Source: Alphaproteobacteria bacterium (GTDB lineage Bacteria; Pseudomonadota; Alphaproteobacteria; JAQWUY01). From it: a DNA stretch of 64,000 nucleotides. Of this stretch, positions 24,001 through 57,000 are shown piece after piece. The stretch spans positions 2,756,455 to 2,820,454 of the forward strand of contig OZ254962.1 in NCBI GenBank assembly GCA_965276005.1, read 5' to 3'. The position numbers are program-made. Numbering within the stretch: the stretch's first letter is position 1; every line of letters starts with the position of its first letter.

Positions 24001-27000
24001 TATCGTCTTGCAAGGCGGTAAACAAATTACCGAATTTAAACAGGGGATTTTACCGTGGGCATTGCAAAATCCAGTGGTGCTTATTTTTGACGAATACGAT
24101 GCAGGGCGACCAGATGTGATGTTTGTTATTCAGCGGATTTTAGAAGAAAATGGCAAATTGACATTGCTCGACCAAAATCGAGTGATTACCCCGCACCCAC
24201 AGTTTCGATTGTTTGCCACCGCTAACACAGTGGGGTTGGGCGATACGACCGGCTTGTATCACGGCACCCAGCCGATTAACCAAGCCCAAATGGATCGGTG
24301 GCATATTGTTGCCCCGCTAAATTATTTGCCACGACAAGCGGAAATGGAAATTCTTACAAAACGCTTCGACAAGGCGTTCGACAACACTGTATATGACAAT
24401 ATGCTAGCGGTGGCGGAACTAAGCCGTGTGGGCTTTGTCAATGGCGATATATCGACGGTTATGTCGCCCCGAACGGTGATGTCTTGGATCGACAACGCTA
24501 TCATATTCGACAGTATCGAGTATGCGTTTCGGGTGTCGTTCCTAAACAAATGCGACGAATCCGAACGCCACAGCATTTGTGAATACTACCAACGGTGCTT
24601 TAATCGAGAATTGACCCCATAGCCCATGAACGATAGCCATACCCCTTTGCAGGATATACCGTCCGATATATTGGAAAAACGCTTCGAGAGTGCCTATCGG
24701 GCGTTGTCCACAGATTACCAATCGACGGTGTGCTTCGGTGCCAATCGTGAAGCAACCCATATGCCACACGGCAATACTGTACGCTTGCCCCGTCCCCATA
24801 CGGGGGAGCTGGCGGCTTTGCGGGCACATCGGGGGGAAGCAGATTTTTTGGCGTTTCGCAGCAAATACCACGACAGCATAGCCCACGCCCAAAATCGCCC
24901 GTCCGATGCCACGCAAGCGTTGTTGTATAACGCCCTAGAAGACGCCCGTATCGAAGCCTGTGGGGCGTTAAAATTTATCGGGGCATCGGCAAACATCGAT
25001 AAAGCGTTATACGATAAATACGACCGCTTAAATGTGGCACAAAACGCCACACACATGGGCGATAATGGTTGGGCAGAAGCGTTAAAACTATTCGCCCGTC
25101 AAGCGTTTATGCACAAAGATTGCCCCGAAAATGCACAGGCTTTATGGGATATGTTCGCCCATAAATACACTCCAGAATTGCAAACAGCATTGTCGAAATT
25201 GGCACAAAATGTATACGACCAACAGACATTTTCCAGTATGGTCCATCGCCTAATTGAGGCACTGGAGGGGCATGGGGATATGGCGGATGTGGATGCGGAC
25301 AACGCCCCCGAAAATATAGACGATATGAATGTGGACGACGCCACCCGTGATGACAGCACCGATAGCGGCGAACAGGCTACGGACGAAACCGATGAAAATG
25401 TAACAAGTACAGACACGGATCCTGATGCCCACAGCGACAGCGACCCAACCAGCGATACAGAGCACACAGATATAGACGGGGCGGACATCGACATGCAGGC
25501 AGACGGGGAAGCATTGCCCAGCGATCACAACTTTAACGACAACGCCCAAGCACAGGCGTATAAGGTGTATACGGAAAAATACGATGTTGTCGAACACGCC
25601 ACCGATATTGCCGGCGATATGGAATTGTACGATTTGCGGGTCAAGCTCGATTCGTATTTGGAATCCTATCGGTCTTTGGTCAGCCGTGTTGCCAACCGCT
25701 TACAACGCAAATTACAAGCCCAACAGCTGAGGTCTTGGCATTTTGATTTAGAAGAAGGATTGCTCGATACCGCAAAATTAACCCGAGTGGTAACCAACCC
25801 CTTACAGTCTTTGTCGTTTAAGCAAGAAAAAAATGCGGTGTTTAAGGATACGGTGGTATCGTTATTGATCGACAATTCTGGGTCTATGCGGGGGCGCCCC
25901 ATAGCCCTTGCGGCGATGGCAACGGATATTTTAGCCCGCACTCTCGAACGCTGTGGGGTTAAGGTGGAAGTGCTGGGCTTTACCACCACCAACTGGAAAG
26001 GCGGCAAAGCGTTTAAAGACTGGGACGCAAACGGGCGGCACCCCGGAAATCCGGGACGGTTAAATGACCTGCGACATATTATATACAAAGCGGCTACCGC
26101 CCCCTACACCCGTACCAGAAATAATTTCGGCTTAATGTTAAAAGAGGGACTGCTAAAAGAAAATATCGACGGCGAAGCCTTACAATGGGCGTACAACAGA
26201 TTGTCAAAACGCCCAGAAGACAGACGGATTTTAATGGTCATATCAGACGGTGCCCCCGTCGACGATGCCACATTGAGCAACAACACAGTAGACATACTAG
26301 AAAAACACTTGCGGCAAGTGATTTTGGACATCGAAACCAAATCAGACATCGAGCTGTTAGCCGTAGGTATCGGGCACGATGTGACCCAATACTACGACCA
26401 CGCCGTCACCATCCCCAATGCGGAAAGCTTGGCAACGGTGATGATGGGCGAATTTATCAGCCTGTTTGATGACAATAAAAAGTAATAAGAGCGTGTAAGA
26501 TATGAATATATTTGTAATATCTTTGCCAAATGCCCATGAGAGACGCCAAGCGGTAGCGGAAAAAATGCAGGCATTGGGATTGATCTTTACATTTTTTGAT
26601 GCGGTGGATGGCAGACAGGGCGTGCCTGTGCAATACACCCACCGCATCGACCGTTTAGCCATAGAAAAAAATCTGCGCCGAAGTGTGTCAGATGTAGAGA
26701 TATGCTGTGCCTTAAGCCATGCGTTGTTGTACGAAAAAATTGTTGCCGATCGTATCCCCCATAGTGTTATATTAGAAGACGATTTTTTATGTGATATGGA
26801 TTTTAGGGATATTGTGCATCAGGATATTTTACCAAACCATATGGCGGGTTTTATGTTGTTGTATCACCTGTACGCCCGTATACTCCCATCGCAAAAACAG
26901 CCCCTATGGGGGCGATATAATGTGGCACCGGTGATTAACAACTGTGCTGGGGCGGTGGGGTATTATGTGGATTTACCCACCGTGCAACACTTTGTAACAA

Positions 27001-54000: not shown

Positions 54001-57000
54001 TTGGTACGCAAAATAAACCCAGACATAGTCAATCCGCACTTTTTAACATCTTATGGACTGTTGGGCGGATTTAGCCACCTTCGTCCGTTACACTTAACTG
54101 CATGGGGGAGCGATATTTTACGGGTGCCTTATGAAAAACCCTATATGCGATTTTTGTTAAAAATTTTGTTTTGCAAAGCTCATAGTTATACTACAGATAG
54201 CCAAGCAGTCATGGATGGTATATATGGGGTGTATACTCGAAAACAGGGGCATGTAATAAAGTGGGGTATAGATATACGCATATTTACCCCGCGACAAAAA
54301 CCACAAGGGGCGTTTACTATATTTTCCAATCGATTGTGGAAAGATTTATACAATATTGATGTGATACTCGATGCGTATGCTATTTTTCGGTATAAATACA
54401 CGGGCGATAGCTGTTTAAAAATTGCCGGTTTTGGATCTTTGGAATCCGCATTAAAAGCACGGGCAGGTGAAGGTGTGGATTTTATAGGCAACATAAACTC
54501 CGAATCGGCAATGGCAACCGCTTTACACACCAGTCATTTGTATATATCCATTCCCGACACGGACAGTGTCGGTATATCGGTTGTAGAGGCACTGGCAACG
54601 GATACGCCAACGATTGTTTCTGATATTCACGGCAACGCCATTTTTGACATCACAAAAACCCCCATACAAGCGGAACAATTAGCCGAAAAAATGCTCCATA
54701 TTGCCGCAAATTACCAACACTATTGCACCATACATAAAAAAGTTGGGGCAGATATTCGCAAAAACCACAATCGTACAACATGTATGGACAAGGCATTTTA
54801 CATATTGAACGATATGTAGTATAGTATGGTCGTATCGTAAATTATTTTGGGTATGGAAATATGGTAAGCATCAGCGTGGTTGTTCCAACTTATAATGCAT
54901 CTGCATTTTTACTAGATACCTTGCAAAGTATTCAAAATCAATCTTATGCGGATTTTGAATGTATTGTTGTAGATGATTGTTCGATGGATAATACCTTTGC
55001 CATTGCCGAAGATTTTGCCAAAAAGGATTGTCGTTTTATTGCCTTGCAAAATGATGTCAATCGAGGAACGGGTTTTACTCGTAATGCGGGTTTGCAACAC
55101 GCTAAGGGAAACTGCATAGCATTTTTAGATGCGGACGACATATGGGTTCGAGATAAGTTGTGGATCCAATATCAATACATGTGCGATAATCCAGATGTGG
55201 CGATTACTTATGGGGTGTATGGCAACATGGATGCACAGGGCAATAAAACACACATAGTTGTAATCCCGCCCTCATCTTTAAGTATTTACCAATACATGGC
55301 AAATACAACCATCGGGCTGAGTACCAGTATGATAAACACCCAATTAACAGGCAGTTTTCGTTTCGGTTTACGCCGTACCCGCCAAGATTGCGAATTGTGG
55401 ATACAGTTATTATCAAAAGGTCATAAAGCCCACAGATTTTCTAATCAGATAAGTACATATTACCGTAAACACCCACAACAAATATCGGGTAATAAGTTTA
55501 AAATGCCTATAAATACCTTGAAATTGTACATAACCCAATCTTATGTAAATAAAGCCATTGCTCTCTTATGTTTTGTTGGTTATGTGTTTAATGCGGTTCG
55601 AAAAAGAGTATAGTATGCAGATGATTTGTATTTCCTAAAATAAAATGACAAAACAAAAAACTGGTGGTATACTGCCCCCATGAGTGATACACAACAATAT
55701 CAGGTACTAGCCCGTAAGTATCGCCCGACCAATTTTGATGATTTGGTGGGGCAACAGGCGTTGGTGCGGACTTTGACCAATGCTTTAAAGGTCGGTCGCA
55801 TTGCATCGGCATTTGTTTTAACCGGTGTGCGGGGGGTGGGCAAGACCACGACCGCCCGTATTGTGGCTAAGGCGTTAAACTGTGATAAAACCGATGCCAA
55901 TGGCAACCCGCCCATAAAGCCTTGTGGCGAATGCACGCACTGTCGAACCATTGCGGTGGGAACCCATATGGATGTGATGGAGATGGATGCGGCGTCTCAT
56001 ACCAGTATCGACGATATTCGGGACATTATCGATTCTGCCCAATATAAACCGGTAACCGCCCGTTACAAAGTGTTTATTTTGGACGAGGTGCATATGTTGT
56101 CAAAATCGGCATTTAACGGGCTGTTAAAGATTCTTGAAGAACCGCCCGCCCATGTGAAATTTATCTTGGCAACTACGGATATTGATAAAGTACCTGTAAC
56201 CGTGTTATCGAGGTGTCAACGGTTTGATTTACGCCGTATTACTGTCCAAGATTTAATCGCTTTATATACGGATATATCCAAAAAAGAGGGCTTCGAGGTC
56301 AGTGATGACGCCATGCGTACTATTGCTGTTGCTGCCGATGGTTCCGCCCGTGATGGGTTGTCGATTCTCGACCAAGCCCTTGCCTTAACCACCGATGGCA
56401 AAGTGCATATGGATTTGGTTGTATCCATGTTGGGACTAGCGGATAAACAAGCGATATACGATGTGTTTAAATCCCTGATGCAGGGTGATATAACGGCGGT
56501 TGTTACACAAGTAAACACTTTGTACAATGCGGGTGCCGATCCCACAGCCGTATTACAGGCGTTGTTGGATGTAAACTGGTTATTAACCCGCTACAAACAC
56601 ACTCCGACTATTGTCGATGCACTGTCCCTATCGGAAATCGAACGCAATGCGTGTGTCGATATGGCACAAGCGTTGGATATTCCCACTTTAACCCGCACTT
56701 GGCAAGTGTTACAAAAGGGGGTACATGAATGTGCCCAAACCGACCGTCCCATCATGGCGTTAGAAATGGTGTTGATACGGGTCGCATATATGGCATCTGT
56801 GCCGAGCGTGGAAAAAGTGATAAAATCCGTTTTGCAAACAGGGCAAAATACCACAGCACCAAAAAATACCACAGCACCAAATAGTATGGTTGCAAATACT
56901 ACTACTACGGTACAACAGGCGACTGTCCCAGAAGCATTACCCGCCAAAACACCGCCCGTGCCATCTACGCTCGCTCCCCCCCCTGCACAATCGCTCTCCC

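Follow-up and report, generated by a model that had tools for sequence, protein, structure and literature searches.

We analysed a stretch of 64,000 nucleotides (the window) from an uncultured Alphaproteobacteria bacterium (assembly GCA_965276005.1, contig OZ254962.1, positions 2,756,455 to 2,820,454 of the forward strand). It contains a glycan gene cluster, or island, of about 29 kb (positions 26502-55613) that is filled by 29 tightly packed open reading frames (ORFs), 27 of them on the plus strand. Four of the products belong to glycosyltransferase (GT) family GT10 and one to GT11, and they are encoded together with a putative GDP-deoxyhexose pathway, other glycosyltransferases, a flippase and many modification enzymes. 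Genes were called with Pfam profiles (hmmscan, gathering cut-offs) and with NCBIfam models (equivalog cut-offs). The left flank consists of a dnaJ-like gene, cobS and cobT, and the right flank of dnaX, ybaB, recR and hisBHAF. These Pfam calls agree with an earlier sequence-only reading of the window, which had placed the cluster between cobT and dnaX. The gene list of that reading (GT25, three GT2, GT4, Wzx, carbamoyl-, methyl- and acyltransferases, manC, gmd) was also recovered with Pfam and NCBIfam. We add a GDP-keto-sugar epimerase, a cupin, a DegT aminotransferase, a fusion of a nucleoside triphosphate (NTP) transferase with a HAD phosphatase, a TagF-like phosphotransferase, a GINT1_N-like protein and an ORF with a predicted GT-A fold. 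The cluster was compared with related loci on metagenome contigs (denoted L082, L083, L168, L169 and L170) and with a contig of a sister strain (L167).

The genes of the two fucosyltransferase families are the following:

27252-28259, plus strand: GT10a, of the Helicobacter pylori fucosyltransferase (FucT) type, with N- and C-terminal domains (PF00852, 49.7 bits; PF18025, FucT_N, 37.0 bits)
29184-30143, plus strand: GT10b, the best-scoring GT10 (PF00852, 74.8 bits; FucT_N, 29.8 bits)
30148-31176, plus strand: GT10c, of a divergent GT10 subfamily (PF00852, 34.7 bits)
32094-32987, minus strand: GT11, alpha-1,2-FucT family (PF01531, 82.0 bits, model positions 123-297)
33161-34288, plus strand: GT10d, of a divergent GT10 subfamily (PF00852, 25.0 bits, marginal)

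All five matches exceed the gathering cut-off, which is 23.9 for both PF00852 and PF01531, so the four GT10 and one GT11 calls of the sequence-only reading stand. No NCBIfam model matched the GT25, GT10 or GT11 proteins. The donor-site motif [FLI]EN...(S/T)EK and an associated arginine are found in all four GT10 proteins, and their four-way alignment has R141, E196-N197 and E208-K209 as invariant residues. The motif reads FEN...SEK in GT10a, and the GT10 motifs align to YKFNLCFEN...TEK in the structure of the H. pylori alpha-1,3-FucT (2nzw), whose donor-binding residues we take to be R195, N240, E249 and K250. This enzyme is the best match among solved structures for GT10a and GT10b, which both carry FucT_N (for GT10b at 5.9e-13, aligned over YRFVLCLEN...TEK). 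GT10c matches it at 9.7e-6, and GT10d is the only one of the four with no direct match in PDB. All four proteins have basic, aromatic-rich C-terminal tails, and GT10d has a C-terminal hydrophobic anchor with one predicted transmembrane segment.

The four GT10 genes had been described as paralogous. They are not recent paralogues but two deeply diverged pairs: GT10a and GT10b are 31% identical, GT10c and GT10d 30%, and only the donor-site region can be aligned across the pairs. The marginal Pfam score of GT10d is strengthened by its family, which comprises 2590 representative clusters at E<=1e-3. PF00852, and nothing else, matched 57 of 60 aligned members, and the family profile found only GT10 fucosyltransferases in PDB (FUT9 at 7e-18, H. 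pylori FucT at 7e-17, plant FucTA at 1e-16). We know of no characterised bacterial member of this second subfamily (c/d type), with its approximately 2600 clusters.

The GT11 protein has the N-terminal motif GGIGNQMFQ within LGGIGNQMFQLATAYA (residues 8-23). The canonical donor motif of the family (motif I) is HxRRGDY. The putative equivalent in the island reads IHYRDYHD, which, in a comparison made on sequence only, keeps the His and the Arg and deviates in spacing and in the acidic residue. GT11 has orthologues in L082 and L169 (62-63% identity) and is only 25-34% identical to the GT11 proteins of L168 and L170. GT10a is 67-68% identical to its orthologues in L082 and L169, two loci in which no orthologue of GT10c was found. 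Transfer of L-fucose by these five proteins is predicted from family membership, and their acceptors and linkages do not follow from the sequence. There is demand for bacterial GT10 and GT11 enzymes as biocatalysts in the making of fucosylated oligosaccharides (human-milk oligosaccharides, Lewis epitopes), and the locus supplies five divergent candidates.

The family GT10 is common in metagenome assemblies, as more than 470 relatives were found in a metagenome scan. To have many of them in one locus is another matter. Among 30 metagenomic loci of at least 12 kb, each centred on a GT10 homologue, 27 encoded one GT10, three encoded two, and none encoded three or more, in agreement with the earlier remark that the number of fucosyltransferase homologues is unusual. 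A GT11 was co-present in five of the 30 loci, and many had canonical gmd and fcl genes beside the GT10. Multi-GT10 loci of the window's own GT10 types were found only in relatives of the source organism. Four GT10 and one GT11 in a single locus are therefore uncommon.

The genes for nucleotide-sugar synthesis lie in the middle of the island:

36194-37651, plus strand: manC, mannose-1-phosphate guanylyltransferase / mannose-6-phosphate isomerase (TIGR01479, 544.9 bits, cut-off 373)
40719-41753, plus strand: gmd, GDP-mannose 4,6-dehydratase (TIGR01472, 494.6 bits, cut-off 415; 81% identical in L170)
43890-44414, plus strand: GDP-4-keto-sugar C3/C5 (or C3) epimerase of the Cj1430 family (PDB matches; 70% identical in L170)
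44442-44858, plus strand: small cupin-like protein (weak WbuC cupin match, 19 bits; 65% identical at the same position in L170)
46047-47174, plus strand: DegT-family sugar aminotransferase (PF01041, 305.8 bits; 73% identical in L170)
47175-48131, plus strand: Fcl-like short-chain dehydrogenase/reductase (SDR) (NF047922, GDP-L-fucose synthase, by far the best match with 436.2 bits, cut-off 500)

A complete GDP-fucose pathway had been proposed for the island. Its first two enzymes are confirmed by scores above the equivalog cut-offs (manC is in addition 63-80% identical to its orthologues in L168, L169, L082 and L170), but the third is not a regular bifunctional Fcl. Besides scoring 436 against the required 500 bits, the protein lacks the cysteine of the enzyme. 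It aligns over its full length with the GDP-fucose synthase of Escherichia coli (GMER, 1bsv, 2e-100), where SSCIYP faces SSAIYP, i.e., Cys109 is replaced by Ala. The distance to the YxxxK motif is 27 residues, the same as in GMER, which makes this alignment unambiguous. The catalytic His (His179 in E. coli numbering) is kept, and the Ser/Tyr/Lys triad and the glycine motif of SDR proteins are present and aligned with GMER (GHNGMVGS, SSAIYP, YAVAK). The cysteine is kept in all 14 canonical fcl genes that we found beside gmd and GT10 in other metagenome loci. In the fcl homologues of L170 the position is occupied by Ser or Gly, and one of these copies also lacks the His. Since these relatives are Cys-less too, the loss is a trait of the clade and no sequencing error. 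The Cys/His dyad performs the epimerisation at C3 and C5; the human variant C116A is inactive and C116S is about 1000-fold less active (PMC12362431; PMC2279256).

The epimerase (174 residues, 'RmlC-like') is encoded four genes upstream of the fcl homologue. Its closest structures in PDB are the GDP-4-keto-heptose 3,5- or 3-epimerases of Campylobacter jejuni (7an4 at 4.5e-70, 7m14 at 1.3e-69, and 8db5, 8dco, 8dcl and 8dak at 1e-61 to 1e-65), with 211-238 bits, whereas structures of dTDP-sugar RmlC matched at 1e-25 or weaker and with at most 92 bits. The protein also fell below the equivalog cut-off for rmlC (113 vs 156 bits). By sequence it is an enzyme of the Cj1430 type and no true RmlC. In C. 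jejuni, a separate Cj1430 epimerase works with C4 reductases of the Cj1428 type, which are annotated as Fcl and most of which are unable to epimerise (PMC10680097). The pairing of epimerase and reductase sets which of eight stereoisomers arises, and six of the eight were obtained (PMC10680097). We infer a similar split route for the island: Gmd, then the stand-alone epimerase, then the Cys-less Fcl homologue acting as a C4 reductase. The island would provide a clean natural case of a GDP-fucose-synthase homologue that lost the epimerisation cysteine beside a dedicated epimerase.

The product of this route is most likely, though not assuredly, GDP-L-fucose, because the reductase resembles GMER far more than it does the C. 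jejuni reductases, which it matches at 1e-64 to 1e-78 over the N-terminal 200 residues only. The catalytic His and the SYK triad are intact as well, and genes of the GT10a/b type adjoin canonical gmd and fcl in other metagenome loci. A different GDP-6-deoxyhexose, for instance a 6-deoxy-L-gluco, -talo, -gulo or D-altro isomer, might instead result from the separate epimerase together with the Cys-less reductase and serve as donor for the GT10 and GT11 enzymes. The split pathway itself speaks for such a donor, as do the six stereoisomers given by C. jejuni enzyme pairs of the same types (PMC10680097) and the score of the Fcl homologue below its equivalog cut-off. Given the resemblance to GMER we regard this alternative as unlikely. 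GT10 and GT11 enzymes are known to us only as users of GDP-L-fucose, which also counts against it. The stricter proposal that the clade divided the bifunctional synthase into a Campylobacter-type epimerase and a Cys-less reductase and thereby came to make a sugar other than L-fucose is, we think, decidedly unlikely. If it were true, these would be the first GT10 and GT11 members to use a different donor sugar.

The same keto intermediate may feed a second branch. The DegT protein keeps the lysine that binds pyridoxal phosphate (PLP; SFSVPK) and, with the hexapeptide-repeat acetyltransferases encoded next to it, could give a 4-acetamido-4,6-dideoxyhexose. A colitose pathway (ColD and ColC) was considered for the DegT/fcl pair and rejected, since a protein that keeps the PLP lysine is an aminotransferase and not a dehydratase of the ColD type. 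GDP-heptose is an unlikely substrate of the block, given the presence of manC and of a Gmd at equivalog level and a HAD domain of type IIA rather than like that of GmhB.

The other genes of the island are predicted to build, modify and export the glycan:

26502-27251, plus strand: GT25 (beta-1,4-galactosyltransferase family of lipopolysaccharide (LPS)), first gene after cobT (PF01755, 93.7 bits; orthologues 76% identical in L168 and 69% in L082)
28247-29215, plus strand: GT2 between GT10a and GT10b (PF00535, 124 bits; 65% identical at the same position in L082 and L169)
31146-32048, plus strand: FkbM-type methyltransferase, weak call (PF05050, 23.0 bits, cut-off 22.7; TIGR01444, 31.3 bits, under the cut-off of 37.7)
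34320-36101, minus strand: O-carbamoyltransferase of the NodU/CmcH type (PF16861, 208.6 bits; PF02543, 124.9 bits)
37870-38562, plus strand: probable methyltransferase, weak call (PF13847, 19.9 bits, under cut-off; 69% identical in L169 and 41% in L170, same position)
38562-39809, plus strand: GINT1_N-like protein (PF24793, 55.6 bits; 65% identical in L169 and 41% in L170)
39784-40611, plus strand: ORF with predicted GT-A fold, like a retaining-type glycosyltransferase (AlphaFold model, pLDDT 94.4)
41754-42839 and 42832-43890, plus strand: two tandem membrane O-acyltransferases, Acyl_transf_3 (PF01757, 91.1 and 79.3 bits)
44867-45454 and 45460-46029, plus strand: two tandem hexapeptide-repeat acyltransferases (PF00132, 52.3 and 60.8 bits)
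48172-49656, plus strand: fusion of a nucleotidyltransferase and a HAD-IIA phosphatase (PF00483, PF13344, PF13242; TIGR01460, 114.8 bits, cut-off 100; 58% identical in L083)
49693-50865, plus strand: TagF-like CDP-alcohol phosphotransferase (PF04464, 128.3 bits; 48% identical in L083)
50862-52313, plus strand: Wzx-type flippase (PF01943, 36.8 bits, cut-off 28.2; 11 hydrophobic segments; GC content 0.305)
52315-53190, plus strand: GT2 (PF00535, 130.1 bits)
53148-53813, plus strand: S-adenosylmethionine-dependent methyltransferase (PF13649, 41.3 bits)
53782-54819, plus strand: GT4 (PF13477, 78.7 bits; PF00534, 42.3 bits)
54861-55613, plus strand: terminal GT2, in a strain-variable slot beside dnaX (PF00535, 119.2 bits)

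The best NCBIfam match of the carbamoyltransferase was NodU, at 133.8 bits and far under the cut-off of 1000 bits. The ORF with the GT-A fold had no sequence match in Pfam or PDB and is among the best-conserved genes of the locus, with homologues of 79%, 74% and 65% identity in three related genomes and the conserved motifs GAGYWLWKP and HRHDQ. Foldseek searches with its model retrieved members of GT8 (LARGE1, XXYLT1, glycogenin) and GT6 (ABO transferases, BoGT6a) with E around 1e-5 and TM-scores of about 0.5, a likeness of the model that is at the level of the fold only. The two membrane acyltransferase genes are a tandem duplicate (spacing of 1078 nucleotides, 72-78% nucleotide identity), and their products are 77% identical to the single copy of L168. 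The hexapeptide acyltransferase genes share 5' ends of 204 nucleotides that are 80% identical, and L170 has one copy; they look like a second tandem duplicate.

The Pfam domains of the island ORFs included no Wzy, Wzz, initiating phosphoglycosyltransferase, ligase or ABC exporter, and the only island proteins with multiple transmembrane segments are Wzx and the two membrane acyltransferases. Genes for Wzy, Wzz and the initiating transferase may be located elsewhere in the genome.

Some glycan genes have short homopolymers: G8 at 29061-29068 (GT2, near the 3' end), G8 at 39639-39646 (GINT1_N-like gene), A9/T9 at 32901-32909 (near the 5' end of GT11) and A8 at 33166-33173 (codons 2-4 of GT10d). 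They are too short for a call of phase variation, and base composition would predict only modestly fewer of them. A frameshift at the G8 at 39639 that would fuse the GINT1_N gene with the next ORF was ruled out, as stop codons follow in the second frame.

The island differs in composition from the core genes around it, among them its two immediate neighbours:

24626-26485, plus strand: cobT, core gene of the left flank (PF11775, 287 bits; PF06213, 143 bits)
55680-57464, plus strand: dnaX, core gene of the right flank (Pfam DNA_pol3 domains; 98% identity to the sister strain, 71% to the nearest species)

The GC content is about 0.47-0.50 in the core of the window and falls to 0.30-0.46 across 26.5-55.6 kb. 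It averages 0.393 in the island, whereas the window outside the island has 0.465 and the adjoining core genes have 0.489. The difference is significant for windows of 1 kb (p = 4e-8, Mann-Whitney test). The AT-rich contrast described in the sequence-only reading is thus real, and its two spot values were exact (0.30 at 49681-49740 and 0.583 at 57781-57840). Within the island the content is uneven, with 0.41 from 26.5 to 48.1 kb and the lowest value, 0.353, on the dnaX side from 48.2 to 55.6 kb. At third codon positions (GC3) the island genes range from 0.24 to 0.47, vs 0.56 for cobT.

The source organism has no close relative in culture. The nearest species is represented by OZ246977.1, a metagenome-assembled genome of 2.63 Mb ('Alphaproteobacteria bacterium'), to which CobT and DnaX are 71-77% identical; they are at most 50% identical to everything else, named genera included. 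In that genome cobT (at about 1.14 Mb) and dnaX (at about 1.81 Mb) are some 670 kb apart. No island gene was found in the 10 kb downstream of its cobT, nor any glycan gene in the corresponding 10 kb beside its dnaX, which is preceded by genes for aromatic amino-acid biosynthesis. In another relative, dnaK and dnaJ are found upstream of dnaX. The sister-strain contig (L167), which comes from another sample, is 98.7-99% identical in nucleotides in the flanks and at 21.8-38.3 kb. In it, the terminal GT2 (54861-55613) is swapped for a cassette of about 9.3 kb that encodes a UDP-sugar dehydrogenase, an oxidoreductase, an AMP-ligase, an SDR, a luciferase-like protein, a hexapeptide transferase and a glycosyltransferase, and nucleotide identity falls to 92% at the 3' end of GT4, vs 98.7-99% in the flanks. 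These two comparisons support the view that the cobT-dnaX interval is accessory.

Collinear pieces of the locus were found in three related species, at other chromosomal sites. L169 (a 2.58-Mb genome) has the order GT25-GT10a-GT2-GT10b-GT11(minus)-X-manC-GT25-methyltransferase-X-GINT1_N-[GT-A-fold ORF], with two positions given as X, which is collinear with the window at 62-78% amino-acid identity. It lacks GT10c, the FkbM gene, GT10d, the carbamoyltransferase and all genes from gmd on. This locus adjoins carA and rplU, and L082 is 97% identical to it in nucleotides. A 351-residue protein at the GT10d position of L169 was tried as a cryptic GT10 and ruled out (hhalign probability of 0.2%). In L168, the order is MscS-DUF4167-manC-[GT-A-fold ORF]-GT11-acyltransferase-formyltransferase-insertion sequence-GT25-GT25-GT10-(Caps_synth+GT10 fusion), and the homologue of the GT-A-fold ORF is identical to the one on the OZ246977.1 chromosome. 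The MscS and DUF4167 genes that directly precede this locus are at 10144-12841 in the window, which makes the left neighbourhood partly syntenic. The fusion, in L168 from 19898-20831 on, is a 639-residue protein of the nearest species with Caps_synth, FucT_N and GT10 parts, encoded beside a further GT10 and two GT25. The locus of L170 (a 1.79-Mb genome) comprises two GT10 and then manC-methyltransferase-GINT1_N-[GT-A-fold ORF]-gmd-epimerase-cupin-acetyltransferase-DegT-reductase-GT11...Wzx-GT2, and its block from gmd to DegT is 50-81% identical to the window. L083 has at least four GT10 genes or fragments and homologues of the NTP-transferase/HAD and TagF-like pair. At 3780-8071 of this related low-GC glycan locus, genes for a PPDK-like protein (963 residues), a GATase and an NTP-transferase stand in a row, a trio that presumably resembles the O-methyl phosphoramidate synthesis genes Cj1418-Cj1416 of C. 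jejuni.

The composition of the island could suggest that its 29 kb were recently imported as one block from a distant donor of low GC. The difference to the flanks (0.39 vs 0.49, p = 4e-8), the lack of the island beside cobT and dnaX in the nearest species and the strong similarity of the epimerase to Campylobacter enzymes are in line with such a transfer. So is the codon composition: relative to the lineage of OZ246977, housekeeping orthologues of the window genome have a GC3 higher by 0.04 to 0.17, and island orthologues differ by -0.04 to +0.01, i.e., they are outside the shift of around +0.10 of the core genes. Yet the identities of the collinear segments in the three related species (62-81% in amino acids) are comparable with those of housekeeping genes (66-88%), the left neighbourhood is partly syntenic with L168, and the window is free of tRNA genes, while the island has neither integrase nor transposase domains (Pfam scan) nor flanking direct repeats (repeat search). 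The uneven GC content and the cassette-wise variation between strains point to piecemeal turnover, which also counts against a single import, and we consider the latter improbable. The locus of the relatives is not markedly AT-rich against their own genomes. The horizontal acquisition claimed by the sequence-only reading is thus not supported for the island as a unit. The GC3 values do suggest that the copy in the window was exchanged with, or derives from, a relative of lower GC. This copy is similar in composition to the lower-GC relatives, and an exchange within the clade, with members of lower GC, has probably renewed it. The best reading of these comparisons is that the clade has an ancestral, mosaic locus, which appears to relocate on the chromosome and to swap cassettes even among strains. 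A fucosyltransferase-rich glycan module can in this way be a stable yet mosaic hallmark of a whole uncultured lineage.

Taken with the gene content, we consider it probable that the island is a surface-polysaccharide biosynthesis locus of this uncultured alphaproteobacterial clade, ancestral and mosaic, whose product is most likely an LPS O-unit, a glycan of the lipooligosaccharide (LOS) type or a capsule-like glycan exported by Wzx. ManC and Gmd, which scored above curated thresholds, would make GDP-4-keto-6-deoxy-D-mannose. The Cj1430-type cupin epimerase would act on this intermediate at C3/C5, and the Cys-less SDR at C4, to give a GDP-6-deoxy-L-hexose that is most probably L-fucose, while the DegT aminotransferase and the hexapeptide acetyltransferases would divert some of the keto intermediate to the acetamido sugar. 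GT25, the three GT2, GT4 and the GT-A-fold ORF are expected to assemble the backbone on an undecaprenyl carrier, which an enzyme from outside the island would have primed. The four GT10 and the GT11 could then attach up to five deoxyhexose branches, the C-terminal tails of the GT10 proteins serving for membrane association. The methyl-, O-acetyl- and carbamoyltransferases and the TagF-like phosphotransferase, presumably fed by the NTP-transferase/HAD enzyme, would decorate the glycan.

Several points weigh against this scheme. All its acceptors and linkages are putative. The island has no priming transferase, polymerase or ligase, so that O-antigen, capsule, exopolysaccharide and LOS are indistinguishable. 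We read fcl in the window, and a canonical copy may be present elsewhere in the 2.97-Mb genome. The related loci come from metagenome contigs, and a few of these (L083, L170) have low coverage and frameshifts. The treatment of L082, L166 and L169 as one species is based on the 97% nucleotide identity of L082 to L169 and on samples that are shared or related, rather than on a binned genome.

The glycan might instead mimic Lewis antigens of a host, as in H. pylori: GT25 and GT2 would make Gal-GlcNAc, to which GT10 and GT11 would add alpha-1,3/4- and alpha-1,2-fucose. The CAZy families of the H. pylori set are indeed adjacent here, in a module GT25-GT10-GT2-GT10-(GT10)-GT11 whose core is conserved in a second species, and a trio GT11-GT25-GT10 occurs also on an unrelated metagenome contig (L103). 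GT10a and GT10b, with their FucT_N domain, have the H. pylori enzyme as best PDB match, and the GT-A-fold ORF resembles GT6 and GT8 enzymes, some of which cap the H antigen. However, family membership fixes neither acceptor nor linkage, and the donor sugar itself is uncertain with an Fcl homologue that lacks the catalytic Cys. In H. pylori, polyC tracts act in futA, futB and futC (PMC9136243). The fut-like genes of the window have no poly-C/G of nine or more: no such C/G run was found in the island, none of eight or more in any GT10 or GT11 gene, and no heptad arrays (TRF). Phase variation of these genes was considered and rejected for want of suitable tracts. The source organism has no known host, GT10 genes are frequent in metagenome contigs, and the heavy decoration with methyl, acetyl, carbamoyl and phospho groups would mask an epitope. 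The review literature names Lewis mimicry for H. pylori and Helicobacter mustelae only (PMC8881735). We therefore find a Lewis-type glycan implausible, and on present evidence the locus does not extend Lewis-antigen mimicry beyond Helicobacter.

Outside the island, the window encodes two TpsA-like proteins, the first of them an exoprotein. A run of G17 at 6242-6258 is inside the 5' end of the gene of the first (ORF at 6319-10140; TPS secretion domain and FG-GAP repeats), whose signal-peptide-like N-terminus and TPS domain are in different reading frames. Either the gene is subject to phase variation and at present 'off', or the homopolymer was misread in sequencing. The second protein (13138-22740, 3200 residues) has a TPS domain, eight FG-GAP repeats and YDG domains, with a run of T13 upstream at 12999-13011. 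At the nucleotide level its gene is mostly unalignable to the otherwise 99%-identical sister strain, where positions 1-4500 of L081 are unmatched save for one short segment of 84% identity. Near the other end of the window, about 1.6 kb (61894-63486) are replaced in the sister strain by an element of the IS3 family with an rve transposase (L167, 16215-17934). The replaced stretch includes a LexA/CI-like repressor with an S24 peptidase domain (62224-62949, minus strand).

The island was also compared with known systems. The Lewis machinery of H. pylori (FutA and FutB of GT10, FutC of GT11, a GT25 galactosyltransferase, and GDP-fucose synthesis) uses the same families, and the island has them together with its own GDP-6-deoxyhexose supply. 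GT10a and GT10b are built from two domains like the H. pylori FucT and have its donor-site motif, and the basic C-terminal tails of that enzyme are also found on the island GT10 (PMC4202792). The island differs by its four GT10 from two subfamilies, the absence of poly-C tracts and heptad repeats, a non-canonical Fcl, a Wzx, extensive methyl, acetyl, carbamoyl and phospho modification genes, and an uncultured alphaproteobacterium as source organism. The Lewis genes of H. pylori are scattered, whereas those of the island form one cluster, and the H. pylori flippase is of the ABC type (Wzk).

The cassette that modifies heptose in the capsule of C. jejuni (4,6-dehydratase, Cj1430-family epimerase, Cj1428-family C4 reductase) follows the same logic as the island, with a stand-alone cupin epimerase for a GDP-4-keto sugar and then a non-epimerising reductase annotated as Fcl (PMC10680097). 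The substrate in the island is probably a hexose, as there are manC and a bona fide Gmd and no heptose-synthesis genes in the island. Its reductase is nearer to E. coli GMER than to Cj1428, and an aminotransferase/acetyltransferase branch is added.

The fucose-decorating gene sets of rhizobia (for Nod factors, NodZ/NoeI/NolL/NolO with NoeJ/K/L and NolK) combine a supply of the GDP-fucose type with methyl-, acetyl- (Acyl_transf_3) and carbamoyltransferases that act on fucosylated glycans, a combination that the island has too. The fucosyltransferases of the latter belong to GT10 and GT11 and not to GT23 (NodZ) or GT2 (WrtF), it has no nodABC, and its match to NodU is 134 vs 1000 bits. WrtF is known from Rhizobium tropici, which has a fucose-rich O-antigen (PMC12595478).

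Wzx-dependent O-antigen clusters with fucose in Gram-negative bacteria, such as those of E. coli O86, O127 and O128 with the GT11 enzymes WbwK, WbiQ and WbsJ, present the same low-GC, strain-variable mix, in which genes for nucleotide sugars (manC, gmd, fcl-like) and for modification enzymes accompany glycosyltransferases and Wzx. GT11 homologues of the alpha-1,2-FucT type are typical of such clusters (PMC4202792). The island differs from them in having four GT10, no Wzy, Wzz or initiating transferase, and a chromosomal site that is not fixed across species. It is a system of a known kind, a variable surface-polysaccharide locus that is unusually rich in fucosyltransferases, and the most instructive part of it is the combination of a Cys-less Fcl homologue with a Campylobacter-type epimerase.

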